Assembly: GCA_026770705.1 (NCBI GenBank)
Contig: JANJGN010000011.1
Location: 21,452,001 to 21,516,000, forward strand
DNA: 64,000 nt
Origin: Isurus oxyrinchus
Taxonomy: Eukaryota
Direction: 5' to 3'
Positions 3,700 to 60,860 of the stretch are shown here, piece after piece (the stretch's first letter is position 1; every line of letters begins with the position of its first letter). The position numbers were made by a program, and so were the translations under genes. The notes beneath the pieces are model-generated. The model was not told the origin of the DNA and ran no database searches. It saw nothing but the letters and a program-made list of their open reading frames with translations.

Positions 3700-5440
3700 A
3701 TGATCAGTACCTCATCCACCACCTTAAACTTTTACTCCCTTCACCATTGTCTTTTAATAACTGCAGTGTGTACCATCTACAAGATGCACAGCAGCAACTC
3801 ACCAAGGCTCATTTGATCACACCATCTAAACCCACAGCCTCTGCCACTACTATAAGAAGAACAACAGATGAATGGGAACACTGCCACCTATGGGTACTCC
3901 TCTAAGATTTGGAGCTGTATCAGTGTTCCTTCACTGCCGCTGGGTCAAAATCTTAGAACTCCCTTCCTAACAGCACTGTGGGTGTACCTACTGTTATGAT
4001 CCCCAGCTGAGGTTACGTCTGATCCCAGGATGGAACCCAGCTTGATAGATCCTAACTTTTATTTGTTTGTTTTGATACGTGGAAAGGGGCTACTGAACAG
4101 ACACTGGAGTCAGCAAATGAACTTTTAACAAAAACATAACATTTATTAAACAAGAAAAGATGAACAATATTACAATACTCCTGCACCAACAATTATACTT
4201 TTACAGATATATACAGATTTGTAAGGGTAACTCAAGTTACAAAAGCTATCTTACACACTAATGTTCACAGTAAGTACACAGTCCATGTAACCCAATTGGC
4301 AACCTGTGGTCAGACACACCACACTCTGAAACCAAGTGACAGATGCCACCTCAACCAAATGCTATGGATCTCTCCTCAACTCCTGCCATCCCCACACCCC
4401 CCCCCCCCCGCCCCCACCAGATGCTTGTCACACTGTGAGCCAACTGGTCTCACTGCACTCCGTCTTTCACATGAGGGTTTCCAATCTCCACTTGAAGAAC
4501 ACACTTTGGAATCATCTCCCAAACCGATGCTTTTTCACAGCTTCCTTCTGCAAGGGTTCACCCCCCAGGGTTTCAAACTCTCCTTCTGATGTTCCTCTTT
4601 CCTGGGTCACCATATGCTTTCAAGCTTCCTTCCATACATTCTGTCTCTCCAACTCAGCTGTCAACAGTATACCACTGCTTCACATGCCCATAGCAAAGAC
4701 TTATAGGCCTTCAGCCATCTATTTGGACCTTCTTGCCTCTTGAAAGTTGTTCTCACTTTAAATCTGTTTTCTGCAGCTTTTGTCTCTTTAAATCTGAAAC
4801 TCTGGAGCCTTTCTCTTTGCCCCTCACTCTTAACATTAACATTCATTAACAGGACCTTTTCCAGGTTCCTGTCCTTCCTTTGACTAGAAGGCCTGCTTGG
4901 GACTTTCCCCTGTTTCTGTCTCTTTTGGCCTTGGGACCATTTTGCTTCTTTTGGGAAATCTGCTCTCACTCTGCAGTTCCCTCTCCCAGTGTCCAGTCTC
5001 TCTGGATTCCTTGCTTCAAACTGAACTCAAAACTGCTGTTTCTCTAGTTTTTGTGTCTCTGGGAGGGACTTGCCTCTCTGGACCCCTGTTGCTGGGCAAC
5101 AGCCCACTTTCTCTACTCTTGTTTGTTTAACTTAACTGCCAAAGTTGTAAATCTCATTAGAAACGCAGGCATCTTTTAAAGTGAAACTAAATTTGACCTT
5201 TACTAACAAAGATACAGAAATGCAAGTTAAACTTAAACACTAAAGTTAAAACTCATTCCTGACACCCACAAGTACAAATATAACTTACTTAAATTGTCTC
5301 TATTTCCTAACACTACACCACATGAGCTGCAGTAGTTCAAGATGGCTGCTCACCATCTTCTGGAGGGCAATTAAGGATGGTCAATAAATGCTGGCTTCAC
5401 CAGTGATGTTTACATTGTTCAAACAAATAGTAGAAAAAAA
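3700..5440 (+). mobile_element. Family A LINE 3' fragment split by a solo LTR
   Basis: AVCTIYKMHSSNSPRL peptide. The LINE sequence stops at ggtgtacctac (3991) and resumes at ctacaccacatg (5313). Confidence 0.75.
3992..5312. mobile_element. Solo LTR (1321 bp)
   Basis: TGTTA...TAACA termini with an exact 4-bp TSD CTAC (3988-3991 and 5313-5316). It interrupts a recognisable LINE and has no internal pol sequence. Confidence 0.85.
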
Positions 5441-39665: not shown

Positions 39666-40404
39666 AGCTACACAGGTGTGAGACAATGATGGGGGCAATT
39701 CAACAGGGAATGGTGCTGAACAGATAGGGGAGGTTTGGGCAGAGGGGGTTTGTGGAGGGTGCGGGGATTTGTGGAGGGTGAGGGGCTTTGCGGACGGTGG
39801 TGTGGCGGGAGGGGGGGGAGTCACTGAAACAGAACACATTTAAAAGATGAAATATAAGTTTGAAATGACTTAGCTGTGGGGAACATATCAGTGGTTTTAT
39901 TTTTACAGGCTGATGTCTTGGCTTTCTCCCTCTTTTACCTGCTATTCATGGGGAGGCTTTCACATACAGAGGCTGCCAGGGAAACAGGGCAAACTGCGCT
40001 GCCAAAGTACTTTTCGCCCACATTGGCGGCAGCAAAGCCCAGGAGATGCGAGGCAATTCTGGAAGCCTCCCAGGGAACCCTAGCACTGTGCGTTGAGAAT
40101 GGAACATAAATGCCAGCATGGACTGGTTGGGCTGAATGGCCTGTTCTTGTTCTGTATATTCAATGTAATTCTATGCCTTGAAGCTACTGAATGCATGAAG
40201 AAGAAAAGCAATAGAAGGATATGCTGATAGGGCGAGGTGAAGCAAGGGTTGAAGGAGGCTCATGTGGAGCAGAAAAGCATTAGCATCGACAATTCGACCA
40301 AATTGTCCATTTGTTGTTGTAAATTCATGTGAACCCAGATTAAACCTTCTCTTTTAGTTGAATCTGGACGCTGGCAAGACCTACTTTTTTTTTTAAAAAA
40401 CAGG

Positions 40405-43400
40405 GGGCAGAATCATCCCAGATTTGCGTTAATAGTGGGCAGGAAAATTGACATTTTACCCGCCGGCCGCAATGACGGCTTCTCGAGCCATATTGCTCCA
40501 CATTATGCATTCCTGGGAAACACGCCATTTCGATGGGCAGGCTCTCATATGCCCACCACACCATCACCTCGCTGCTTCATCACGCCGGGTGCCATATTTA
40601 AAGTGTAGCAGCGCGCACATATCTCAGTGCTCCCAGCCCAGGACTGCTGCATGGAAGACATGGCTCTGAAGGACAAAATGTCTTCAGCCCCCAGGTTCAA
40701 TGACGGATCCCTTGAGAACCTTTTGGAGGCAGTGGAGTCCCGCTTTGACGTCCTCTACCCCCTCTCTGGCTGTAGGATGGGCAGCAACATCATCAACCTG
40801 GCCTGGGAGATGGTGGCAGTGGTGGTCAGCACCAACACCCTGCAAAAGAGAACAGCCACCAAGAGGATGAATGGCCTCCTCCATTCCACCAGGGTAAGTC
40901 ACTCATCTAATCACTCTCCACACACACACTCACAAACCCATCACACACTCACAGGGCCCTCACTCACTGCCAGTTCAAGGGACATCACCATTCACTCTTT
41001 CATACACACCTTCATTGTCCTCATCCCGTCCATGGGACCACTCCCCACCCACGCATGCCAGACATATGTATCATCCAGCCTGGCAGGCATCCCACTTACA
41101 CTCTCTCCATCCCTATTCATGCAGATCAAGCTGGCACTGCAACAGGCAGAGGTCGCTGACCAGTGGAGGAATGCCTGACATTAAGGTCCTCATGGACTTA
41201 GAAAACAGCCATCCAGCTGGCCAGCAAGGATCTGAACTATCCCTGTGCTCACGATGAGGCTCTACCAAGTGCTCCAGCAGTGCAACATCCATCAGACAAC
41301 CATGCTGTGAGTGATGTGTCCTCTTTCACAGGCCACTGCCATGCATCCTCCAGTCAAGCCCTGAAGAAACTTCTGAAGATGAATCTGAAGGCACCCTTCC
41401 TGAAATCCTGTCATAGCGCTCACTCACACCTTCCACCAGCGCAGAGACACACACACTTCAGTGGGACTTAGCTATAGAGGAGCCTTGGGATCACAATCTG
41501 GTGAGCACACCGCACTGTCTGATCCACAGCAGGCAGAAGCAGGGACTTCCCAGGTTTCTGGCACTCGGAGGACTGTTAGATATCAGAAATCTGCTGAGTC
41601 CGAGTCAGATGAGGATCCTCTGGACTCAGTCATGCCTCGGTTGCTGGAGCTGCAAAGGCAAGCTCGGGAACATCAGGAAGGGATGTCCGCCTTCAGGCTG
41701 AGGCAATACTGCTGGCATGCCAATGCACCGAGGTCAACACTGGTAGGATAATGGCCGCTATGGAGACCCTGGTCCAAGATGTGCACCTGCACTGCTGTGC
41801 AGGCTGAACTCCATCACTGACACCATAGTTGGCCTCCGACTGTGTGGCAGTTCGATCTCACTCCAGCTACCCCTTCTCCTCAAGGAGTCAGCCAGAGGCC
41901 CTCAGGCACCCATAGGAAGGAGGTTCAGCAGGTGCATCCCTGAGGATCGTACACCCAGGTGATTCCGGGAGTGTCCAGCCCATCTGAATCCTCCCTTCCT
42001 GTGACCCCAGCAGCTCCAGCTCCACAGGCCAAGGACGGTGCCACTGCCACACAGCAGGACACGGAAAGCAGGCTGGAGCCCTCCAGGTCTCAGCCCTCCA
42101 GAGGACACCCATCAAGGTCATCACAGTCAGCAGGCTGCCTCCACCTCCACTGTAGAGGTCCGGGGAGCACCAAGATGTAGTGGCAGGGTTAGGAAAGTCA
42201 AGAAGTTGAGGCTGTGCAGCCTGGACACAGGAGTTAGTCACTTGTACATAATGTTCACTATTGTAAATAAACTCCCAACAATGTCTCCCTGCCAATGGCT
42301 CCTTGTTCTGATGAGCCATGTTCTTGTCACTCAGATGTGAAACCTTTCTGCACAAGATAAAAGCAGTTGTCTCAATCCAGGGCCTCTTCCCCGTAATTTG
42401 TGCATCCTTCAGACCACAGTGATGGTCCAGCCTCACTGGACACATTAGTGAAGCCTGCACCTCGATGGTGCTTGTCATTGCTGCCAGAATGTTGTGGGCA
42501 GGCGTCACAGAGTTCCATCATTCTCTGTGTGCTCTTAGCACCTTTAAGGTGGGGCTGGCCCCCATCTCTTCAGCATCTGTGACCAGTGACACTGTGCTCC
42601 TGAAGGGGACAGGTGCTGATGACAGACAAAGGATCAGTTGCATTTAAAGTTTCATGGCTGTGTCTCTATGATATGACCCTGATCACAGCGCAAGCGAGCT
42701 GCCCCCGGTGAGACAGGAGTTAGACAGTCTCAGGCTGCGTGAAGATCTATGGAGTGTCCTCACTACATGTCATCATCATCATTATCATCTTGCAATCAAG
42801 CGACTATCAGGACCTCCACTGCTCTCCGCGACAGGAGCATTATCACAGAGGGTATATGCGCTGCCATAAGCTGGACTGGAGTCAAACGTTCATAGATGCG
42901 CTTTGAGGATCTATTGTGTCTCCGTGCTACATGTCATTGTTGTCGTCATTGTCCACAAATCTAGCAGCTATGTGGACCTCCTCAGCATGCCTGTCTGGCC
43001 TGGCCAGTGCGAGGGCCTCCACCCTTATCGTCGCCTTTGAGGACCTCCTCACCCTCAATCCTGTCAATGTCCTCCTCATTGGAGGAGACCTCCAGTTCCT
43101 CTTCAGCCAGCTCCTCTCCCCCTTGCCAGGTTGTAAAGGGTGCAGCAGATGACGACAATGCATGACACCCCCTGTGGACAACGCAATCAGGTGGACAACG
43201 CAGTCAGGTGGCTCAATCGATCTCTTCTCCGTCATCTTCGCTCGCTGTGCACCACGAGGCATAAAGCTAGTTCACTAGGCACCACGCTCCTGATCCTCTT
43301 GCAGGATGAAAGGGTGATGTGTGGGTTTGCTTGGGTGTTCTAAGATCTCTGGGTTAAGTCTGAAGGCCCCTTAACACATCCTGAAGAGTACTGGCCACCA

Positions 43401-44368
43401 TTTGGATGACCAGAGCTTACTGTGCTTCATGGCTGCCCAAAATCCCACCCACCTCCGCCCCACTCCACTTTGCCCTCTGGACTGCATGTTGTGCTCTCAG
43501 CTCAACTGCAGGCATTCTCCTAACCCGCACTGCAAGGTGGCACAGTTATCTTGACCCATAGGGGAAACTGGCCCAAGCTGGGATGTTGACATTGCAAGGG
43601 GCTGTGAGCACCTCCACTAGTGCCTACTCCACGGCCAGCTTCAGCAAGAAGGTTGTACAACGTGCCCGGTCATCCATCCGTTCTGCAGTCCACTAAAATG
43701 CTCAGTAGTTTGCAGTCTGTGTCTGAGGGATGTAAAGCTCTGGAGCACTTGGTGGCACTTGTATGCCCCTGTGTTGCTTGAGTGGGCTGATTAGAGGCCC
43801 GACTCCGGTCATATCAATGTGGCTGCATCTGAACTGCCTCAGCTGCAGAGGAATGGTCACTTTATACAAGGTTTCCGTACTGCGTGGCCACTTCCTTTGC
43901 ACACCCCTAATGCTTGTGCACTACCCTCAACCACAGGACAGCCCTTGCTGCCCCCCCTTGCCAAGCCGCCTCAACCTTGAAGTCCAACAGGTGACCCCGG
44001 CGAGTGATGCACAATGTTTCTGTGCAATCACCTCCAAGTTCCCCTCAAGGTGCAGCCCAACAAGTGCTCGCCTTATATATGCTATTGTGAAACACATTGG
44101 CGTGCAATCACAATGACTTCGGCAGCTGATCCAGAGTGGTGGGTAGGGGGAATGATTATGGTGGGTTCGCCTTATAATAATATGCAGATGTATTACAATG
44201 AGGTTCCCCACGTCCGATGGCGGGAAATGCATCCCCGATGGGCTGAGCTGGACGATCGCAAACTTGGTTCACAATGTTGTGAAGCCGATTTTTTTTTACC
44301 TTCTCGCCATTTTGTCTGCTCACACCGCTGAACATGGCCAACACCAGTGAGCAGGGAAAATTCCACCG
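40405..44368. mobile_element. PIF/Harbinger element: intron-containing Myb/SANT gene (+) convergent with an internally deleted transposase (-)
   Basis: Left end gggcagaatcatccc and a degenerate right TIR gggaaaattccacc. Plus exon 40651-40893 reads APRFNDGSLENLLEAVESR..AWEMVA..KRMNGL with donor gtaagt. Minus strand near 42930-43175 reads PQGVSCIVVICCTLYNLA plus an acidic tail (HARBI1 C-terminus). Confidence 0.85.
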
Positions 44369-44370
44369 AA

Positions 44371-45082
44371 GGGCTAGGATTTCCCGGTCGGCGAGCAGAG
44401 GTTGGGGGGGGGGTCGGTGGGGGAGGGGTCTGCTCGCCGACGGATAAAATGACACAGGATGATGTTGGGAAGAACCCCCAATGTCACCCCACCTCATTTC
44501 AAATTTCAGGTGGGCGGGGTCTCAGCAGAATCAGCTGTGCGCCCGTCGACCTGTCAATGGCCTCAATTAAATTAAAGTCATTAATGGACCTGCCTGTCCA
44601 ACCTTAAGGTTGGCGGACAGGCCAGGAGCCCTGGTGGGCATTAGAAAAAGCATGAAACCTCATCCACAGGTGGGATGAGGTTTCATGTAGGTTTTTAAAT
44701 TTTTAATAAAAGTGTTAGTGAAAGTGATGGACATGTCCCAACTCATGTGACATTGTCACATGAGGGAACATGTCAAGGGAAGTTTTTTTTCTCTATTGTT
44801 AACATTTTAAAATTTGGCGCCAATCTCCCTGAGGCAGCACTTAGCCTCAGGGACATCAGTGTGTGAAAGAGCACTCTCAGTTTAGGGACACCCCCTCCTC
44901 ACCCGCACAGGAAGCACATAGCGCTTCCTTGTGGACATCACGCTGTGTGGGCCTTAATTGGCCCACCCACCTAAAATGGCGGCGTGCCTTCCGATCGGGG
45001 CCCTGCTCGGAGGTGTGCCTCCATGCGCCCACTCCTGAACTCACCCCCCCCACCCCCGCCCAACGAGGGGAAAATTCTGCCC
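44371..45082. mobile_element. MITE, same family as 34914-35649
   Basis: Ends gggctaggattt / aaaattctgccc. Shares the hairpins catgaaacctcatcc..ggatgaggtttcatg and catgtccc..gtgacattgtcac..catg. Confidence 0.8.
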
Positions 45083-45869
45083 AAGGTGTTTGCTGGGGGC
45101 AAATGTGCCAGATCCAGTAAGTTTTCATTGGACTTGATGGTGGTTGAGTGGGGCCTGTCACTGACAATGGAACAGGAGGGCTTTTAAAAATGAAACAAAC
45201 AGAAGCTGGAAATGATGGTAATGTACAATAGAGTCTGCGCTGCTGATACAACAGCATCTGTAAAAAGAAAGGATAATTTAATGTTTTGAGGTGCACAAGT
45301 GTTTATCCAAACAAAAGTGTATATACATGAAAAATGGCCTCTCCCATTAGCTGATGCTGTTGTACTCGATGAGTGGCCCATTATGAAAGCAACAAACTGT
45401 GGCACTAGTCATCTGAAAATGAAACCAATAAATGTTGGCAAACACTCCGAAGGTCAGGTAGCAACTTTGGAGAGACAAAGAGAGTTAGCTCTTCAGGCTG
45501 ATGATGCTTTCATGTCCTCCTTTGAAAGGAGGATTGCAGAAGCAAGTGAGTTAGCTCGCTGGATTTTATTTTGTTAAATTTGTGTTCTGTAGGCCAGGGG
45601 CAAACTGAAATTCAACAGCTCAACTGGCAGACCCAGGAATCTGAGATGAATGAAGATCAATGTGGGAGTAGCTTGGACTTCTAACACTAATTAATATGAG
45701 AATTTGTCTCCTATGTCATGACAACTGAGATTATGGATCTATTTTAATGCATTAGGCAGTCAACATTTTTATTGGACTCATTATTGGGTAATGCAGCTGC
45801 CAAACAACAACAGAGCTGGCTGATGCAGAATGTACTGGGTGATAGGAAGCTTCCTTGCTTAAACCATAC

Positions 45870-46215
45870 AATAACAACTTTTATAGTGCCTATAATGTAA
45901 TAAAACTTCCCAAGACAGAAACCTAGTCAAACAAAATTTGCCACTGTGCCACTTAAAGATATATTAGGATAGGTGATCAAAAGCTTGATCAAAAAAGGTA
46001 GGTTTTATGGAGTGCCTTAAAGGAGGCAGGTGGCGGGGGGTGGGGGGGAATTGGGGAGGTGTGGTGGGGGTAATGGTGGGGGGGGGGGGAATGGGGGGGA
46101 GAGAGAGAGATGGAGAGATTTATGATTGGAATTCCAGAGCAAAGGGCCTAGGCAACTGAAGGCATGGCCATCAATGTTGTAGCAATTTAAATCAGGGATA
46201 TGTAAGATGCCAGGA
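45870..46215 (-). mobile_element. L2 LINE 3' end
   Basis: GHAFSCLGPLLWNS peptide on minus and an L2 tail. Confidence 0.65.
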
Positions 46216-46418
46216 ATGCATAAAATAATTTTTTTTTGCAAAAATATACTTCATTCATAAATCTTCAAAAACATTTCGAACCATTTCAATATCACCATTA
46301 CAAAAATACAATCAGGTTCAACTTTTACATCGTGAATCACAAGCTGTATCAGTACAAACAATGAATATTACAATCATTGGCAGACATTCATTTTAATCTG
46401 TACAGACTGAGGGGCTCT

Positions 46419-49400
46419 TTACAGTTCCCAGCCCCCCAGTGCACTGTGGCAGAAAGGTCTTAGACAGCGGCCCTTCCCCATTGCGCCTTTGTGGCGGCTG
46501 CCCCAAGCTTAACTGTGTCCCTCAGCACGTAGTCCTGGACCTTGGAATGTGCCAGTCTGCAACACTCGGTCGGGGACAACTCTTTGCGCTGGAAAACCAA
46601 CAAGTTTCAGGCAGACCAAAGAGCGTCTTTCACCGAGTTGATGATCCTCCAGCTGCAGTTGATGTTTGTCTCAGTGTGTGTCCCTGGGAACAGCCCGTAG
46701 AGCACAGAGTCCTGTGTCACAGAACTGCTCGGGATGAACCTCGACAGAAACCACTGCATCTCTCTCCAGACCTTCTTCGCAAAGACACAATCTACAAGGA
46801 GGTGAACAACGGTCTCTTCCCCACCACAGCCTCCTCGAGGGCAACGTGCAGAGGGGGTGAGACTCCTGGCGTGTAGGAAGGATCTTACAGGGAGGGTCTT
46901 TCTCACCACCAGCCAAGCTACGTCTTGGTGCTTGTTGGAAAGTTCTGGCGATGAGGCATTCTGCCAAATGACTTTGTCAGTCTGCTCAGGGGACCATCCC
47001 ACAGGATCCACCCTCTCCTTTTCCCTCAGGGCCTTTAAGACGTTACGTGCCAACCACTGCCTCATGGACTTGTGGTCAAAGGTGTTTCTCAGCATAAATT
47101 TTCCCACGAGGGATAGGTGGTACGGCACGGTCCAACTACTTGGAGCGTTCCACGGCAGCGTGGCCAGACCCATCCTTCGTAACACTGGCGACAGGTAGCA
47201 CCTCAGCACGTAGTGACACTTGGTGTTTGCATACTGAGGGTCTACACACCGCTTGATGCAGCCACACTCAAAGGTGGCCATCAGTATGAGGGCGATGTTG
47301 GGCACGTTTTTTCGCCCTTTATCTAGAGGCTTGTACATTGTGTCCCTGCGGACACGATCCATTTTCGACCTCCAGATAAAGCAGAAGATGGCTCGGGTGA
47401 TCGCCACCACACATGAGTGTGGAATGGGTCAGACCTGTACCACATACAGCAACAGCGAGAGTGCCTCACACCTGATGACTAGGTTCTTACCCGCAATGGA
47501 GAAGAAGCGTCGCTCCCACATGCCCAGTTTCCTTTTCACCATAGGCACTCGCTCCTTCCAGTTTCTAACGCGTGCCCTGGTCCCTCCGAACCATATCCCC
47601 AGCACCTTCAGGCCATCAGCCCTGACATTGAAGGGGACAAAGGATCGGTCAGCCCAGTACCCAAAGAACATGGCCTCGCTCTTCCCACGATTTACCTTGG
47701 CTCCCGAGGCCAGTTCGAACTGGTCGCAGATGTGGATAAGTCTGTGCACCGACAGCGGATCTGAGCAGAAGACGGCGACATCATCCATGTACAGGGAGAC
47801 TTTGACCTGAGTGCGTCCACTGCCTGGGAGTGCACATCCACCATGCAGGTGTGCAATATTCTGTCAAAGGCCTTCTCCTGATCCAGGCTGATGAGGCAGG
47901 TATCCACACCCCTGTCCTGTACATAGGCAATTGTATCCCTGAGCAGCGCGAGGCTGTCAGAGATCTTCCTGCCCGGCACAGTGCAGGTCTGGTCAGGGTG
48001 AATCACCAATTCCAGAGCGGATTTGACCTGATTGGCGATGACCTTGGACAGAATCTTATAGTCGACATTCAACAGTGAAATGGGTCACCAATTTCTAATT
48101 TCCTCCCTTTCCCCCTTGTGCTTGTAGATGAGGATGATAATGCCTTTCCTCGTGAATTCTGACATACTGCCGGTGAGGAGCATACTCTTGTACACTTCTA
48201 GCAGGTCTGGGCCAATCCAGTCCCACAGAGCCGAATACAACTCCACCGGCAAGCTGTCACTTCCGGGAGTTTTACTCTTCTCGAAGGACTCAAGGGCCTC
48301 AGTCAGTTCGTCAGGAGTTAGCGCTTTGTCCAGACTCTCCCGTGTCCTGTTGTCTAAGACCTCCGTGATAGAGGACAGGAAGGATTGGGAGGCCGTGCTG
48401 TCTGTGGGCTTCACGTCATACAATCCGGCATAAAAGGATTTGCTGATCCTCAAAATGTTGGACTGTAATAACTTTACTGAGCCATCTTCTTCCTTCAGGC
48501 TGCTGATCACAGAGCTCTCTGTGTGTACCTTTTGGAAGAAGAAACGTGAGCATGTCTCGTTCTGCTCCACGGAGCGGACTCTGGACCGGAAGATGATTTT
48601 GGAGGCCTCCGAGGCAAAGAGCGAGGCTTGCTGGCTCTTCACCTCTTGGAGTTCCTCCTTGACATCGACCCCCATCGACTGCAGCCGGAGCAGATTCTGC
48701 ATGTTTTTCTGGAGTCGGGACATTTCCCTCTGTTTCTTTCTAGCTTTCTGGATGCCTTTGAGGACAAAAAACCTCTTGATGTTTCCCTTGATCGCTTCCC
48801 ACCAGTGTGTCAGTGACTCAAAGTGGGGTTTCATGGTTCTCCAACCTTTGTAATCCCTCTTGAGCTCCTCAATGTTCTCTGGGGTCAGCAGTTTCACGTT
48901 TAGCTTCCATGCCCCCTGCCAACCCTTTGGTCTTCCTCTAAGTGACAGTCAGCCAGTAGGAGGCAGTGGTCAGAGAAGAACACCGGCTTGACGTCGGTGG
49001 ATCTGACTGTGAATGCACGGGACACAAACAGGAAGTCTATCCTGGAACAGATGGACCCGTCAGGCCGCAACTAGGTGTATCTACACTGCGCTCCGTCTGC
49101 AGGGTTGCTGAAGACGTCGTGCAGCTTGACATCCTTTACTGTTTCCATCAGGGATCTGGATGTAGCGTCCAATCTGCTTTCGGCCCTGCCGGATCGTCCA
49201 GCCGCATCGATGATGCAGTTGAAGTCACCGCCCAGAATGATCAGCCTGGAGGTCGCCAGCAGCAGTGGGAGCTGCTGAAAAACCTCCAGCCGCTCAGTCC
49301 CTTGTGACGGGGCGTAGACGTTAATTAACCGGAGTGGAGCATTCTTGTACATTACGTCTGCTACGAGGAGGCGTCCACCCACCACCTCCTTAACCTGGGA

Positions 49401-49649
49401 GACGGTGAAGCTGCCTCCCCGCAGCAGAATCCCCAGGCCGGAGGAACGAGAGTCGTTTCCTCCCGACCAGATCGATGGCCCGTGGGACCACCATCATGAC
49501 CATTGCCTGTAGGAGCTGAGGTGCGGTATCGCACACTCCTGCAGAAACAACAGGTCAGCTTTGACCGTGGCAAGGTAACCCAAGGTCGCAACACATCGCG
49601 TAGTAGATTTAATGCTACGCACATTTATGGATACAATCTTTACACCCAT
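46419..49649 (-). pseudogene. Tx1 ORF2 (APE endonuclease, RT, zinc finger), disrupted
   Basis: Starts MGVKIVSINVR. Contains LINVYAP, GGDFN, FSDH, KTPGSD, NVDYKILSK, SLDQEKAFD, YMDD and CPRGGC..ETVVHLLVDC. Frameshifts are present, and a deletion near 47830 removes the QG-PLSP RT motif. Confidence 0.88.
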
Positions 49650-49659
49650 TTTAAAGCAG

Positions 49660-51181
49660 TTAGTCGCTTACCAAACCTGTTGTCTCTGAGAGTTCCTTCA
49701 TGCCCGTGGTGTGCTCAAATTGCTTCACTTGGGATGGGCTGAGGAAAGTGTCCTGAACCTCCCCATTCGAGATGTTCTGCTCAGGTGGCATCTGGGGGTC
49801 CGTGCAGAGAGCGGGGTTTGAAATGTCCTCTGTTGAAGAAGCTTCTCCAATCCTCTCCCCCTCTGGGGTGTTGCTGCTCCCGGCTTCCCGGAGCTGGGGT
49901 GCGCTGAGCGCCTCACTGTTCCCAGATTCCTGGGGTTGTGGTGCACTGGCCTCTTCAGGTTGTGGGCCAAGTTGGGGTGCGCTGGTCTCCTCATTGTCTC
50001 CAATGTTCTGGAGCTTGGGCGTCTCATCCTCCAACTCCCTAGCGTTTTGCCGCTTCTTCTGTTGGTGCCACCCTGGCCCTTCTTCGTCCGAAGAGCTGCT
50101 GCTCTTGTTATCCGTGTCGGATAGGAGACGCCTCTTGCCTCTTGTCTGGGAAGTGGCTTGGTTTCTTTTTAGCCCCTTCTTCCTTTTGGCTCTTTTCACC
50201 AGCTGCCACTCCCCCTGCTGCTTTCCCACTGCTGCCTCCTCCTCCTCCGTTGATTCGCTCTCCTGAGGAGTGGGAGGTTCAGGGGGCAGTGCTGTTGGTT
50301 GGCCGTCTGTTGCCCCAATCTTTTCCTCCACCTTGTCTCTCTCTGTGTCCTCCTTTGTCCCGTTGTTCTCCCTGGGGGCCTTGGTAGTTGGAGTGACACG
50401 AGGCATTTCTTCTGCTTCCCCCTCGTTGGCTTTGGCTGCCTGTGCATAAGTACGGCAACGTTTGGGGCAGGTCTTGTAGAGGTGACTTGCCTCGCCACAC
50501 AGGTTGCAGCACTTAGCCTGTCTACAGTCTTTTGTCTGGTGCCCTTCCTGTTTGCAGTTCTTGCAGAGGACGGCGCTGCAATTGGCCGCCACATGACGAG
50601 ACTTGCTGCATGAGCGACAAAGTTTGGGTTGCCCAGCTTAGGCAAGGTAACCACGGCTTCCCCCGATAGTGAATCTGGAAGGGGGGTGGAAAACGGCTCC
50701 CTTACCATCGGTCTTGAGCGTTACCTTAACCTGGCATTTACATGTCCAGATCCCCAAATCATCTCTAACCGCGGTGCAGCTCCCAACCTTATGGAAGTAC
50801 CTGGTAAGGAAGGTGAGCACGTCAGCGACAGGGACGTAGGGGTTGTACATTTGCACCGTCGCAACCCGTTCTCATTGCAACGGCAGAGCAAAGAGCGGCT
50901 CTGTCGTCAGGATCTTCATTTCTGACAGGTCTTTCTTTTCCTCAAACACCTTCAGGAGTTTGACACAAGCTGCCACTTGCTTGAAAGTCACATCAAAAAA
51001 ATCCAGTGCTGGGGAAATCCTGTAGGCAGTAGATCTCCGCAGCCTCGAAATCACACAGCTTGAATAGGATCCTCTTGGTGAAGAAGGTCCTATCCATTCC
51101 TGTTCCTTGCTCGCTGCCCTTCACCATTACTCGGATGGTGTTAGGTACCCCATGGTAAGGGGTTTGACTGGTTATAGCCAT
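49660..51181 (-). pseudogene. Tx1 ORF1 (gag-like, CCHC knuckles), frameshifted
   Basis: ATG at 51181 (MAITSQTPYHG), FFDVTF, MYNPYVP, three knuckles including CKNCKQEGHQTKDC and CNLCGEASHLYKTC, and a low-complexity tail. Confidence 0.85.
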
Positions 51182-51204
51182 TGCTCTTTCCCTGGCAGAA
51201 ACAC

Positions 51205-51232
51205 GATGAAGGTCTCTCCCCTGCCAGGTAAG
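51205..51232 (-). other. U1 snRNA 5'-end-derived sequence forming the head of the Tx1 element
   Basis: The minus strand reads CTTACCTGGCAGGGGAGAGACCTTCATC versus recalled vertebrate U1 (ATA)CTTACCTGGCAGGGGAGATACCATGATC: 18 contiguous matches, 25/28 overall. Confidence 0.8.
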
Positions 51233-51639
51233 GAATGCATAAAATACAGCTATATTAGCAATCAGTGAATATGGATCGATTGGGGTCTTTATTGGTTCTG
51301 TGTCACTGAATATGTACAGATGCACAGCTATATAATTTACCTTAAAACAAAATTTCATTAACTATACTGAACTATACGGTGCATATTCTGTTATCCTGTG
51401 CTTCCAGCATCATTTGTCCCTGGCTCTCTCATGATGCTCTCTTTTCTACCTACTGTAATTATGCACACTTGCCTGGCCTAACATGATGATTGGAACAAAA
51501 AAAGTCTTACTGTAATCTTGCTCAGCTTTCCTGTGGCCTTATCTGTTGTACTGTGTCACGTTCTGTAGTAGGTTCTGCATAGTTGCGCTTTCATCTTTGA
51601 GGGTTACATTTCAATATTTGGCAACAAACCAATATAAAT

Positions 51640-52445
51640 CAAGGCAGACAAGTAACATTCACACCACACAAATGCCAGACAATGACCATCTCCAACAAGA
51701 GAGAATCTAACGATCTCCCCATGACATTTAGTGGGGGACTCAGTGATGGTAATGCCATTATCAACATCTTGAGGATTACCATTGATTAGAAACTTAACGG
51801 GACCAGCCATATAAATACTGTGACTGCAAGAGCAGGTCAGAGGCTGGGAATTCTGCGGCGAGTAACTCATCTCCTGACTCTCCAAAACCTGTCCTCCATC
51901 TAAAAGGCACATGTCAGGAGTGCGATGGAATGCTCTCCATTTGCTTGGATGAGTGTGGCTCCAACAAAACTCAAAGTACCTGCCACCTCGAGGACAAAGC
52001 AGTCTGCTAGATTAGAACCCCATCCACCACCTTGAATATTCACTCCCTCCATTACCGACACACAGTGGCAGCAGTGTGTACCATATAGAAGATGCAGTGC
52101 AGCAACATGCCAAGTCTCCTTCAACAGTAAAACCCACAAATCTGCAACCTCTACTTTCAAGAAGGACAATAAAAGGACAAGGACATCAAATGCATGGGAA
52201 CACCACCACGTGTAAGTTCCCCTCCAAGTCACACTCCATTCTGACTTGGAATTATATCGCCGTTCCTTCACTGTCACTAGGTCAAAATCCTGGAACTCCC
52301 TTCCTAACAGCACGGTGGGAGTACCTATGCCAGATGAACTGCAGTGGTTCAAGAAAGTGGCTCACCACCATCTTCCCAAGGGAAACTGGGATGGGCAAAA
52401 AACACTGGCCTTATCAGCAATGCCAATATCCTAAAAAAACAAATG
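51640..52445 (+). mobile_element. Family A CR1-group LINE 3' fragment
   Basis: Colinear with 618-1128 and the reverse complement of 54705-55500. Confidence 0.8.
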
Positions 52446-52580
52446 AAATGAAAGACAGAGAGACTCACTATGCACCGTTGTTTTCTGGGTGTTAACCTTT
52501 CTGTTTCTGTCTGAAAAAGCTTGTTAACAGGGATTTGAGTTGGGGAGAGGTCTGGAGTGCTTATGTGAAATATTCTTATT

Positions 52581-53742
52581 GTAACTCTTTCAAGTACAAA
52601 CACGTTTCTATCTGTTTCAGATGAAGTTACATTGTTTCATAGTTTTGCCATTGTGAGATTTGAACTCTTGAGGTTACAAACCCAGTACCATAACCACTTG
52701 GCCATTTAGGCCAAGCTATACTCTTATTGTAACTCTTTTGAGTACAAACCCGTTTCCATCTGTTTATTCAGATGAAGTTACATTGTTTCATAGTTTGCCA
52801 TTGTGAGATTTGAACTCTTGATACTCTTTCGAGCACAAACCCGTTTCCATCTGTTTCAGATGAAGTTACATTGTTTCATAGTTTGCCAGTGCAAGAGTTG
52901 AACTCTTGATCTTGGGGTTACAAACCCAGTACCATAACCACTTGGCTATTTAGGCCAAGCCAAGAAGTTATATTGTTTCATGTATGTAACTCTTTCAAGT
53001 ACAAACACGTTTCCATCTGTTCCTATTCAGATGAAGTTACATTGTTTCATAGTTTGCCATTGTGAGATTTGAACTCTTGATTTCTTTCGAGTACAAACCC
53101 GTTTCCATCTGTTTCAGATGAAGTTACATTGTTTCATAGTTTGCCATTGTGAGATTTGAACTCTTGATCTTGGGGCTACAAACCCAGTACCATAACCACT
53201 TGGCTATTTAGGCCAAGCTATACTCTTATTGTAACTCTTTTGAGTCCATTGTGAGGTTTGAACTCTTGATGGTAACTCTTTCAAGTACAAAGCCGTTTCC
53301 ATCTGTTTCAGATGAAGTTACATTGTTTCATAGTTTGCCATTGTGAGATTTGAACTCTTGATACTCTTTCGAGCACAAACCCATTTCCATCTGTTTCAGA
53401 TGAAGTTACATTGTTTCATAGTTTGCCATTGTGAGATTTGAACTCTTGATACTCTTTTGAGCACAAACCCATTTCCATCTGTTTCAGATGAAGTTACATT
53501 GTTTCATAGTTTGCCATTGTGAGATTTGAACTCTCGATCTTGGGCTTACAAGCCCAGTACCATAACCAACTTGGCTATTTAGGCCAAGCTATACTCTTAT
53601 TGTAACTCTTTCCAGTACAAACCCATTTCCATCTGTTTCAGATGAAGTTACATTGTTTCATAGTTTGCCAGTGTGAGATTTGAACTCTGGATCTTGGGGT
53701 TACAAACCCAGTACCATAACCACTTGGCTATTTAGGCCAAGC
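52581..53742 (-). repeat. Head-to-tail array of 10 units of a ~141-bp tRNA(Thr)-like SINE
   Basis: Units start (plus coordinates) at 52581, 52729, 52823, 52986, 53082, 53231, 53272, 53363, 53451 and 53602. The minus-strand head TAGCCAAGTGG..TTTGTAA..AGATC..GAGTTCAAATC carries A- and B-box-like motifs. Confidence 0.85.
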
Positions 53743-54084
53743 TATACTCTTATTGTAGCTGCCTCAGTTATTAAATCACTAATTAGCTCTAATTATTCAT
53801 CAATTTGAGGGTTGACTTCTCTAAGGCTTTTATTGACCATCTCCACCTCATAGATCCTCATTCTCAGCTGCAAACCCATTCCTGGATTCATTACATCTAA
53901 TGAAGCGATCTCCTCCAGACATAAACTCCTGCTTACACTCTTGTGTGTGATTAGATGACTTCTTTGTGATCTCTGGATGATTATTGGAGGACAATCATTC
54001 AATCACTATGCCCCTAGTTTCTGAAATGCTCTGAAAACAGTTTCTCTTACTAACTCACTCCCTGCTGGACTTGGTTCCCTAGAA

Positions 54085-54550
54085 TAATACAGCAGAGGAG
54101 TCCATTTGGTGCACTATTCCTGTGCTGGCTCTGTGAAAGAGCTGCCCAATTAATCCCAATGCCCTACCCTTTTCTCATTGCCGCGCTAAATTTCCCCCCT
54201 CACATATTTATCCAATTCCCTTTTGAAAGTTAATATTAAGTCAGCTTCCACCAACCTTTCAGGCAGCGCATTCCAGATCATGACAACTTGCTGTGTAAAA
54301 ATAATCCTCCTCACCTCCCCTCTGGTTCTTTTGTCAATTAACTTAAATCTGTGTCCTCTGGTTAATGCTGCATAAGAGTTTCCGCTTATTTACTCTATCA
54401 AAATCTTTACTGGTGTTGAACAGCTTTATTAAATTTCCCCTTAACCTTCTTTGCCCTAAGGAGATCAATCCCAATTTCTCTACTTTTTCCACATAACTGA
54501 AGTCCCTCATCCTTCATTCCATTTAATGAAGCTTTTCTGCGCCCTCTCTA
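54085..54550 (-). mobile_element. CR1 LINE 3' end
   Basis: Minus strand FYTASCHDLECAA/IWNALP region and a CR1 tail. Similar to 33915-34330. Confidence 0.7.
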
Positions 54551-54704
54551 AGGCAGTGTTATGTCTGATAGTGAGCTGAGCTTCAAATCTAACATCTAAT
54601 ATATTTCATGCTCTCCATTATCCAGAAAAAGTCTTCAGCCACTTTTTTGTCAAACATTGGAATCTCTTTTTAAGCCACTCTGCCTTACAGCAACTCACCC
54701 AACA

Positions 54705-56560
54705 TTTTTTTTCATTCACAGGGTGTGGATGTCGCTGGCTGGGCCCAGCATCTATTCCCCATCCCCAATTGCCCTTGAGAAGGTGGTAGTGAGCTGCCTT
54801 GTTGAACCGCTGCAGTCCATGTGGTGTAGGAACACCCAAAACGCTATTAGAAAGGGGTTTCCAGGATTTTGACCCAGTGACAGTGAAGGAACAGCGATAT
54901 ATTCCCAAGCCAGGGTGGCATCTGGCTTGGAAGGGAACATGCAGGTGGTGTTCCCATGCATCTGCTGCCCTTGTTCATTGAGGTGGTTGAGGTCGTGGGT
55001 TTGGGGAAGCTGCTGTTGAAGGAGCCTTGGTGAGTTACCGCAGTGCATCTTGTAAATGGCACACATTGTGCCACTGTGCATCAGTGGTGGAGGGAGTGAA
55101 TGCTTAAGTTAGTGGATGGGGTGTCAGTCAAGTGGGCTGCTTTGTCCTGAATGGTGTCCAGCTTCGAGTGTTGTTGGAGCTGCACTCATCCAGGCGAGTA
55201 TTCCTTCACACTCCTGACTTGTGCCTTGTAGATGGTGGACAGGCTTTCGGGAGTCAGGAGGCGAGTTATTCACCACAGGATTCCTAGCCACTGACCTGCT
55301 CTTGCAGCCACAGTATTTACATGGCTAATCCTGTTCAGTTTCTGGTCAATGGTAACCCCAAGAATATTGATAGGGGGGGATTCAGTGATGGCAATGCCAT
55401 TGAATGTCAAGGGGAGATGGTTAGATTCTCTTGTGTTGGAGAAGGTCATTACCAGGCACATGTGTGACACAAATGTTACTTGCCACTTATCAGACCAAGC
55501 CTGGATATTGTCCAGGTCTTGCTGCATTTGGGCATGGAATACTTTAGTACCTGATGCTCACGAATGGTGCTGAACATTGTGCAATCATCAGCGAACATCT
55601 CCACTTTGACCTTAGACTGGAGGGAAGGTCATTGATGAAGCAGCTGAAAATGGTTGGGCCTAGAACACTACCCTGAGGATCTTCTGCAGCAATATCCCAG
55701 GACTGAGATGATTAATCTGCAAAAACCGGAATCATCTTCCATTGTGCTCGGTATGACTCCAAACAGCGGTGTGTTTTCCCCCTTATTCCCATTGACTCCA
55801 GTTTTGCTGGGGCTCCTTGATGCTACACTGGATCAAATGCTGCCTTGATGTCAAGGGCAGTCACTCTCACCTCACCTTGGGTATTCAGCTCTTTTGTACA
55901 TGTTTGGACCAAGGCTGCATTGCGGTCAGGAGCTGAGTGGCCCTGGCAGAACTCATACTGAGCGTCAGTGAGCAGATTATTGCTGAGTAAGTGCCGCTTG
56001 ATAGCACTGCCGATGACTCCTTCCATCACTTTACTGATGATCAATAGTAGGCTGATGGAGCGGTAATTGGTTGGGTTGTTTTTGTCCTGCTTTTTGTGTA
56101 CAGGACATACCTGGGCAATTTTCCCCATAGATGCCAGTGTTGCAGCTGTACTGGAACAGCTTGGCTAAGGGTATAGCTAAGTTCTGGAGCACAAGTTTTC
56201 AGTACAGTTGCCAGAATATTGTCAGGGCCCATGGTCTTAGCAATATCCAATGCCTTCTGCCATTTCTTGATATCATGTGGTGTGAATCAAATTTGCTGAA
56301 GACTGGCATCTGTCATATTAATGGGTCCTCAGTAGGAGGCTGACATGGATAATCCACCTGGCACTTCTGGCTGAAGATGGCTGCAAATGTTTCAGCCTTG
56401 TCTTTTTCACTGATGTGCTGGCTCTCCCATCATTGAGGATGGGGGTATTTGTGGAGCCTCCTCCTCCAGTTAGTTGTTTAATTGTTCACCACCATTCATG
56501 AATATAGTGTCAGGGCTGTAAAGTTTAGATCTGATCTGCTGGTTGAAGTATTGCTCAGTT
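54705..56560 (-). mobile_element. Family A CR1-group LINE, RT-containing 3' portion, decayed
   Basis: GPDNI, YRSISLLLIISKVME, ALDIKAAFD, QGSVLGP, MFADD and QQDLDNIQAWSDKWQVTF in order, with an A tail at about 54706. Confidence 0.88.
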
Positions 56561-59093: not shown

Positions 59094-59417
59094 AGGTGAA
59101 TCCAAGGAAGGGGTGAAATATAAGCTGGTTTAAGGTGTGGGGGGGGGAAGGTGGGGGTGGGGGGGGGGGGGAGAAGTGGAGGGGGGTGGTGTGGTTGTAG
59201 GGACAAGCAAGCAGTAATGGAAGCAGATCATCAAAAGATGTCAAAGACAACAGAACAAAAGAACACATAGGTGTTGAAGTTGGTGATATATATCTAAACG
59301 AATGTGCTAATTAAGAATGGATGGTTGGGGAATTAAGGTATAGCTCTAGTGGGGGTGGGGGGAGCATAAAAGATTTAAAAATATTTAAAAATAATGGAAA
59401 TAGGTGGGAAAAGAAAA

Positions 59418-60860
59418 TTCCCACCTACATCCGTGATTCCTCTGACACCTTATGTCACATCAACAATTTCCAGTTCCCTGGCCCCAACCGCTTCCTCTTC
59501 ACCATGGACGTCCAATCCCTCTACACCTCCATCCCCCACCAGGATGGTCTGAGGGCCCTTAGCTTCTTCCTCGAACAGAGGCCCAAACAATCCTCGTTCA
59601 CCACTACTCTCCTCCGTCTGGCTGAACTTGTTCTCACGTTGAACTATTTCTCCTTCAACTCCTCTCACTTCCTCCAAATAAAAGGTGTGGCTATGGGTAC
59701 CCACATGGGCCCCAGCTATGCCTGTCTCTTTATGGGGTATGTGGAACATTCCTTGTTCCAGTCCTACTCCGGCCCCCTTCCACCACTCTTTCTCCGGTAC
59801 ATCGATGATTACTTTGGTGCTGCTTCATGCTCTCGTTGGGACTTGGAAAAATTTATTAATTTTGCTTCCAATCTCTACCCCTCCATCATTTTCACGTGGT
59901 CCATCTCTGACACTTCCCTTCCTTGACCTTTCTGTATCAATCTCTGGTGATAGACTGTCCACCAATATCCATTACAAGCCTACCGACTCCCACAGCTACC
60001 TCGACTACAGCTCCTCATACCCCGCTTCTTGTAAGGACTCCATCCCATTCTCTCAGTTCCTTCGCCTCCGTCGCATCTGTTCCGATGATGCTACCTTCAA
60101 AAACAGTTCCTCTGACATGTCCTCCTTACTTAACCGAGGTTTTCCATCCACGGTCGTTGACAGGGCCCTCAACCATGTCCGGCCCATCTCCCGCACATCT
60201 GCCCTCACGCCTTCTCCTCCCTCCCAGAAACATGATAGGGTCCCCCTTGTCCTCACTTATCACCCCACCAGCCTCCGCATTCAAAGGATCATCCTCCGCC
60301 ATTTCCGCCAACTCCAGCATGATGCCACCACCAAACACATCTTCCCTTCACCCCCCTTATCGGCATTCCGTAGGGATCGTTCCTTTCGGGACACCCTGGT
60401 CCACTCCTCCATCACCCCCTACTCCTCAACCCCCACCTATGGCACCACCCCATGCCCACGCAAAAGATGTAACATCTGCCCCTTCACTTCCTCTCTCCTC
60501 ACCGTCCAAGGGCCCAAACACTCCTTTCAAGTGAAGCAGCATTTCACTTGCATTTCCCCCAACTTAGTCTACTGTATTTGTTGCTCCCAATGTGGTTTCC
60601 TCTACATTGGAGAGACCAAACGTAAACTGGGCGACCGCTTTGCAGAACACCTGCGGTCTGTCCACAAGAATGACCGAAACCTCCCTGTCGCTTGCCATTT
60701 TAACACTCCACCCTGCTCTCTTGCCCACATGTCTGTCCTTGGCTTGCTGCATTGTTCCAGTGAAGCCCAACGCAAACTGGAAGAACAACACCTCATCTTC
60801 CAACTAGGCACTTTACAGCCTTCCGGACTGAATATTGTATTCAACAACTTTAGGTCCTGA
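59418..60860 (+). pseudogene. Penelope RT C-terminal half plus GIY-YIG endonuclease, one frameshift near 59920
   Basis: FTMDVQSLYTSIP, GVAMGTHMGPSYA, RYIDDYF, then NLVYCICCSQCGFLYIGETKRKLGDRFAEH...GLN. Confidence 0.92.

Follow-up and report, generated by a model that had tools for sequence, protein, structure and literature searches.

NeSL-1, a retrotransposon that inserts in spliced-leader genes and uses their promoter, belongs together with R2 to the restriction-like endonuclease clades, whose targets are strict. R2 is for its part co-transcribed with the 28S rDNA (cited in PMC4494074). Closer in structure to the elements considered here are the crocodilian LINEs described by Kojima (2015; PMC4494074), in which three Tx1 families (Tx1-2_Crp, Tx1-2B_Crp and Tx1-4_AMi) bear U1 heads and a fourth, Tx1-11_Crp, has a U2 head; in the available part of that account this snRNA-headed Tx1 group clusters with Keno. 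The same text ascribes the heads to template switching and leaves the transcription of the SINEU elements open because snRNA promoters are external (PMC4494074). Keno is an APE-bearing element of the Tx1 clade that inserts in U2 genes, and both Keno and Utopia have their 3' junction at U2 nt 39; in the available portion of this 2015 paper, no elements that target snRNA genes are named beyond Keno, Utopia, Dada-U1 and Dada-U6 (PMC4640811). Dada-U1A/B also target U1 snRNA genes, but the accessible text describes them as DDE DNA transposons whose target-site duplications (TSDs) measure 6-7 bp (PMC8869645).

Here, we analyze a LINE family of the shark Isurus oxyrinchus, a copy of which lies in a stretch of 64,000 nt (contig JANJGN010000011.1, positions 21,452,001 to 21,516,000; the whole stretch is called the window). 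We think it highly likely that this U1-headed family inserts recurrently at U1 nt 39/40, that the landed copies serve as source elements which are likely transcribed from the U1 promoter, and that the dispersed copies are likely promoterless. Like the crocodilian families, it has 5' ends derived from U1 or U2, with exchange between the two kinds of head. The crocodilian elements prefer Mariner-N4_AMi or LTR targets, whereas the shark family occurs both in U1 genes and dispersed; in the accessible part of PMC4494074 no U1-gene insertion is reported for the former, whereas U1-embedded sources can be traced in the latter. The shark family, for its part, has a head whose last portion is the putative target-site duplication left by an insertion in U1, the comparison being made with the published description of the crocodilian families. 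SINEU elements, which are short (<500 nt), non-coding and non-autonomous, differ from the shark element, which measures ~5.2 kb and has two ORFs. With Keno, as far as the available text describes it, the family shares the APE endonuclease, the junction at U2 nt 39 and, in its older subfamilies, the U2 head. Unlike Keno, it is mostly dispersed (most of its 987 exact 3' ends lie at unrelated sites), its young heads are U1, and its 21-28 U1 junctions compare with 5 in U2; because it lacks Keno's U2 specificity we do not file it as Keno, and say only that it works like a Keno-derived, snRNA-promoter-dependent LINE. Like R2 and NeSL-1, it would rely on a multicopy RNA gene both as insertion target and for its promoter, but those elements are not known to scatter about 99% of their copies with a fixed host-RNA head, as this family does. 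The first-pass annotation of the window had noted no described autonomous U1-headed LINE in sharks; the head itself is less new than this suggests, since it is published for the three crocodilian families (PMC4494074, in the part available). Insertion at the U1 site, 3' transductions and the older subfamilies with U2 heads were absent from that annotation. Neither a LINE targeting U1 genes nor the capture of an snRNA promoter was found in the openly accessible literature searched, and the accessible parts of PMC8869645 and PMC5381603 hold nothing further on LINEs in U1.

The window copy lies on the minus strand and extends over 5.0 kb, from 51232/51230 down to a terminal 9-nt poly(A) at 46229-46237. 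It is flanked by 16-nt direct repeats, the 5' one at 51231-51246 and the 3' one at 46212-46227, in a site unrelated to U1. ORF1 (49660-51181), which carries two ZCCHC3-type RNA-binding domains and CCHC knuckles, is interrupted here by a frameshift and stops; ORF2 (46460-49649), with an APE endonuclease, a reverse transcriptase and a zf-RVT domain, is also broken and, compared with copy L056, has lost ~214 nt near 47828. The 3' UTR occupies 46229-46459. These assignments come from matches to PF23057 and PF23058 in the ORF1 protein (P0001), with the CCHC motifs read from the translation, to PF03372 and PF00078 in the ORF2 protein (P0002), and to PF13966 in the window. The ORF1, APE and reverse transcriptase domains were read in open stretches of other copies, and zf-RVT in the window itself. 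A full element measures ~5.2 kb with its two ORFs, of which ORF1 is open in L211 (506 aa); both were open together in none of the fetched loci scanned for ORFs. Poly(A) tails, TSDs and 5' truncation are present among the copies, as in products of target-primed reverse transcription. The copy in the window is dead and TSD-bounded, and belongs to a LINE family of Tx1 type. The Tx1 label follows the architecture and the U2-site relatives and is to be taken as provisional: no protein match was named Tx1, and the reverse transcriptase (RT) tree was built without any named reference. The best named protein matches by identity are partial ones from ray (81%) and whale shark (two hits, 64% and 70%); the full-length matches are amphibian, at 45-47% identity.

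Other repeats share the window with this copy. Positions 52570-53772 hold tandem units of 88-258 nt with tRNA-like heads on the minus strand, for which the best RF00005 score is 30.2 bits; the array is probably a SINE of tRNA origin repeated in tandem. Another repeat is present in two old copies, 51649-52390 and 54764-55482, which are inverted and 73-86% complementary to each other. On the plus strand, 59321-60860 contains overlapping ORFs with weak matches to a reverse transcriptase (E 2e-6) and to GIY-YIG (E 5e-4), both below the Pfam cut-off, which we take to be Penelope-like. There is no match to the U1 promoter within the window.

All coordinates annotated here for the TSD-bounded element with a U1-like 5' end are confirmed. 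Compared with a host U1 gene (L033, identified with Rfam RF00003), U1 4-27 is reproduced at 24/24 positions, with an E of 3e-8 in the window. The Rfam cmscan of positions 40000-56000 reported no U1 at E<=10 because the piece is too short. Full-length members of the family begin at U1 +1 and have a leader of 54 nt, made overall of U1 nt 1-32 joined to nt 39-~57. In the window copy the first part (U1 nt 4-32) lies at 51204-51232 and the second, a degenerate version of nt 39-56, at 51186-51203, with U1 33-38 deleted between them; being clipped, and having the last 2 nt of its 5' TSD in common with U1 nt 4-5 (microhomology), the copy has its start at U1 nt 4-6. The ORF1 ATG at 51181 is 49 nt past 51230, and the short leader reported for this copy therefore stands. 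The oldest U1 head differs at a single position from host U1 1-32 joined to 39-57, and an 8-nt remnant separates it from the ATG; in later heads C46G and further changes appear and the remnant is shorter. The second part of the head is probably the old target-site duplication of the U1 insertion site. The lost nucleotides 33-38, presumably within the U1-70K loop, sit immediately upstream of that site, and we would guess that their loss shields the RNA either from the U1 snRNP proteins or from self-insertion.

The leader of the window copy contains a predicted hairpin (51191-51228, minus strand), the arms of which (51221-51228 and 51191-51198) are indeed 8-nt exact complements 22 nt apart. The first-pass annotation took this complementarity as an argument for a stable family feature, and this reasoning is not supported. 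The second arm aligns to U1 44-51, past the 6-nt gap and with the single change C46G; perfect pairing needs that change, the oldest U1 heads lack it, and it became fixed after the oldest U1-headed subfamily. When one head of the oldest type (L301) was folded the hairpin did not form. The fold of the window leader is a weak one, with a z of -1.5 and 14/200 shuffles equally good, and three heads with C46G gave z from -2.1 to -2.6.

That the U1 head is a fixed feature of the family, as had been proposed, is borne out by the comparison of 5' ends throughout the genome. A 336-nt query returned 1022 candidates, and all of those scored (40/40) start at query positions 1-5 with 96-100% identity. Among 30 fetched copies the flanks are unrelated, except for two sets (L006, L007 and L012; L023 and L024) with common upstream flanks; these are probably segmental or assembly duplicates and were left out of the counts of independent copies. 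A degenerate pattern of the head has 233 exact matches in the genome, and its reversed control 0. From the first 100 of these 233 matches listed, 87 heads were examined (13 were skipped): 39/87 reach U1 nt 1-2, the remainder begin a few nucleotides inside U1, and in the 300 nt upstream of the head U1 promoter sequence was found in 0/87. The base at -1 is G in 24/39 heads as against a background of 21% (p 5e-8). An extra G at full-length 5' ends is known from L1 biology as a trace of a reverse-transcribed cap, and by analogy the G at -1 would fit such an origin here. An RNA start upstream of +1 was also considered, as C at -1 seemed enriched in selected copies; it was rejected, the unselected heads giving 6/39 (p 0.76).

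If the family makes use of U1 genes, copies should be met behind U1 promoters or in front of U1 3' remainders, and both were found. Rfam recognized 42 full-length U1 matches among the candidates scored. A U1 promoter query led to 30 fetched loci, of which ~21 hold U1 genes, whether intact or degenerate, and five (L123, L124, L125, L126 and L138) have the order promoter, element and U1 ~39-164, L123 being the full-length one among these promoter-linked copies; a sixth locus of this kind, L205, was found from its 3' side. A junction query joined the poly(A) of the element to U1 39/40, followed by the remainder of the gene (~39-164), in 28/40 scored loci, which come to ~16 independent events once tandem, segmental and transduced duplicates are merged by their common flanks. 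In the C29-type genes, where nt 39 is T, this T is missing past the A-run, which places the cut at 39/40; a few junctions are displaced by 1-3 nt. The exact 3' 27-mer of the element, counted 987 times genome-wide, is present in 13/28 of the U1 junctions, and uniform insertion would predict about 2e-5 of them. Among unselected 3' ends 1/30 lies in U1, and the U1 share of all 3' ends is about 1%. The U1 site is the object of a strong preference, not of strict specificity. Duplications at this site run from U1 ~39/40 to 51-57 (L216, L206, L124 and L304), which coincides with the second half of the head.

For many of the U1-joined copies (L201, L204, L209, L210, L214 and L216) no promoter was found within the 6-15 kb fetched, and a deletion upstream is directly visible in L138 and L205. 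In L123 the ORFs are broken, the head is degenerate and ~8 nt are absent before +1. No intact full-length copy of the young subfamily was found under an intact U1 promoter among the promoter-search candidates scored (40/71 and 40/56) or the 87/233 heads. The tandems L135 and L136, which were considered as insertions into the head, proved to be repeated insertions at an ordinary TSD. Rfam, applied to 20 of the 30 unselected 3'-end loci, gave no other RNA-gene target at E<=0.01, and 140 kb around the U1/U2 clusters gave nothing but U1 and U2 at the gathering score. As for the U1 genes themselves, dispersed ones (L031, L098, L099, L101 and disrupted paralogues) have a common downstream flank of ~1.2-1.4 kb (82-98% identity) on several contigs, as if the U1 unit had spread as a cassette.

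The most direct trace of U1-embedded copies is left in their offspring. L211 lies in a 21-nt TSD at a site unrelated to U1, and has in order U1 +1, a full element (95% identical to the reference copy), a poly(A), U1 39-164, the flank of a U1 gene over ~250 nt, a poly(A) signal and another A-run. The same flank is present in L212, which is 5'-truncated, in L213, where it is interrupted by sequence similar to the 52570-53772 array of the window, and as an orphan piece in L307; among 40 matches scored, the single one in an intact gene is L033. Since the flanks of L211-213 are 92-93% alike mutually and 85-89% identical to this nearest intact gene, their source was a U1-gene paralogue absent from the assembly. 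L200 (14-nt TSD) and L215 have a second, different flank in common; L200 derives from this second source, and L304 derives from a tandem at a U1 site. Since TSD-bounded dispersed copies take in U1 +1, the element, the remainder of U1 and U1-gene flank up to a poly(A), U1-embedded copies were sources. Such transduced products need an RNA begun at U1 +1 inside a U1 gene, and we infer that the U1 promoter made it. The junction search can detect transductions from U1 sources only; in a test for other sources, 12/30 copies were usable, of which 6 have an immediate TSD and 6 are ambiguous, so dispersed masters may exist as well. Part of the 5' region of the element is present in 20/22 of the listed runs, as contigs only, most of them presumed RNA, which carry neither transcript start nor strand information; three such runs cover the 3' part of the element but not the unique flank. 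The joint between poly(A) and U1 is unbridged in the contigs of the listed runs, the best piece ending at 1553, inside the A-run. The two options first offered for the window copy, a source within a U1 gene or a fixed U1 head, thus prove true together, the head being inherited and the sources U1-embedded.

The cycle that we propose would have four steps. The endonuclease would nick a U1 gene at 39/40, from which a 13-19-nt duplication of U1 ~40-57 would arise. The U1 promoter upstream would then yield a capped RNA from U1 +1 through the element. ORF1 and ORF2 would copy this RNA mostly into unrelated sites, where the head is kept and the promoter lost. About 1% of the copies would re-enter an snRNA gene and may become new masters.

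The family has not always been tied to U1. Older copies have U2 1-37 ahead of the same remnant and ORF1 start. At five loci, which account for 13 overlapping matches against 0 in the control, the poly(A) adjoins U2 nt 39, and the 3' ends there are mostly of the older type. A tree of 51 rows, built on the 5' ends of ORF1, places L211 and L213 in the youngest clade (100/96), L200 in the middle group and the promoter-linked L123 at the base of the middle and young groups (100/99); it is midpoint-rooted with weak root support and gives no direction alone. A 19-row tree of 300 columns, composed of 17 of these rows and two divergent relatives, sets the 10 U1-headed rows apart by a branch with support 93/97, recovered in 98% of the bootstrap trees, and leaves the U2-headed and U2-site rows outside this group, the root itself hanging on one long branch (0.43). 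Taken as phylogenies, these would indicate a single swap from a U2 to a U1 head. A Keno-like ancestor that targeted U2 and had a U2 head likely gave rise to the lineage, which would have swapped heads once, on landing in U1. Among 80 metagenome relatives, L331, L333 and L340 lie in U2 genes and none in U1. The RT of the family, together with amphibian proteins, is sister to a set that contains the U2-inserted L331 and L333 (97/96); the third U2-inserted element, L340, is placed elsewhere in this tree. Two distant metagenome relatives (L349:1-210 and L351:5010-5150) adjoin intact U1 genes without being inserted in them.

Two arrays combine both snRNAs. In L197-L199 (G000:C21:76.77-76.80 Mb), each of the tandem ~7.3-kb units has a U2-headed element and, behind it, U1 ~39-164; the array might be an intermediate stage in the swap of heads, and no promoter match was found upstream of it. 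In L517-L521 (G000:C29:177-242 kb), a ~20-kb repeat unit with one U1 gene and one U2 gene contains two U2-headed copies of the element, which have been amplified together with the unit.

Least certain in the model is how the element finds its site. The cuts lie at U1 39/40 and at U2 38/39: the position agrees, and the motifs common to both genes are out of register. This speaks against a choice of site by sequence alone, whether by endonuclease preference or by pairing between head and target, an alternative which leaves promoter capture intact and to which we allow somewhat less than an even chance. The same may be said of the promoterless heads, of which there are at least 233 and in which 1 exact junction (L302) was found, whereas the U1 site has 21; the one match left over, L303, is a U1 variant gene. 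Moreover, in L299 a U1-type promoter is followed by non-U1 sequence with three insertions at +42, although these are tandem re-use of one site and not independent. In favour of sequence reading, the dispersed sites show a weak bias like that of the U1 site (G first in 18/30, T fourth in 13/30 and T fifth in 15/30), in L302 a copy adjoins the head of the element itself at the corresponding point, and L123 has a single head right behind the promoter, as though joined by homology; the heads, being without U1 33-38, might also be skipped by a sequence-reading enzyme. We favour recognition by position behind an snRNA promoter over the reading of sequence alone, with a confidence close to even. In L062, L305 and L302, junctions also lie within the element's own ORF2 (nt ~4515-4580), possibly a secondary hot spot.

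The U1 head might instead have been captured once, an internal promoter then starting transcription at head +1 anywhere in the genome, and the U1-embedded masters would be a minority of the sources. The hundreds of dispersed full-length copies, the lack of an intact promoter-linked master in the assembly, and a head that is inherited with its own deletion and substitutions across subfamilies, not refreshed from U1 genes, would all suit this explanation. We consider it unlikely, as the leader has just 54 nt and is U1-derived nearly to the ATG, and the starts equal the host gene +1 for U1 and U2 heads alike; the promoters of U1 are external, upstream of the gene, according to the available text of PMC4494074. 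Furthermore, U1-embedded transductions occurred at at least two stages of the lineage, yet U1 sites hold about 1% of the copies. Still less probable, to the point of being scarcely tenable, is that each head was added separately by a template switch from LINE RNA to U1 snRNA during insertion. Such switching is known, with variable junctions, for the 5' extensions of crocodilian SINEU-2 (PMC4494074, in the part available), and L134 has a partly doubled U1 start; but the 6-nt deletion is common to all 233 matches, the subfamily-specific substitutions in the head agree with the ORF1 tree (label changes number 10, and 22.4 when shuffled), and both the junctions of poly(A) to U1 39 and the transductions would be left unexplained. 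A chance match or one-off chimera, which the shortness of the piece and the absence of an Rfam U1 call in the window might suggest, can practically be set aside in view of the E value of the match and of 233 heads against 0 controls.

Returning to transcription from captured U1 promoters, a broader reading may be offered, tentatively and at a little under even odds. The lineage as a whole would be promoterless and would reproduce only by re-entry into snRNA genes, guided by the promoter, ~39 nt behind the start; its heads would record successive captures, of U2 and then of U1, and its masters would be short-lived, disrupted U1 genes, broken U1 loci being about as many as intact ones. The same cycle would then lie behind the crocodilian snRNA-headed Tx1 families and SINEU. 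The shark genome contains the intermediates that were missing, namely elements placed behind U1 promoters and descendants in which the remainder of the U1 gene is included, and the transcription of U1- and U2-headed retroelements thereby becomes testable. U1 joins the RNA genes that are targeted by non-LTR retrotransposons. A natural switch of target and promoter from U2 to U1 in one lineage should help to identify what directs an APE-type LINE to a site, and the family suggests a source of turnover in the copies of the U1 gene.
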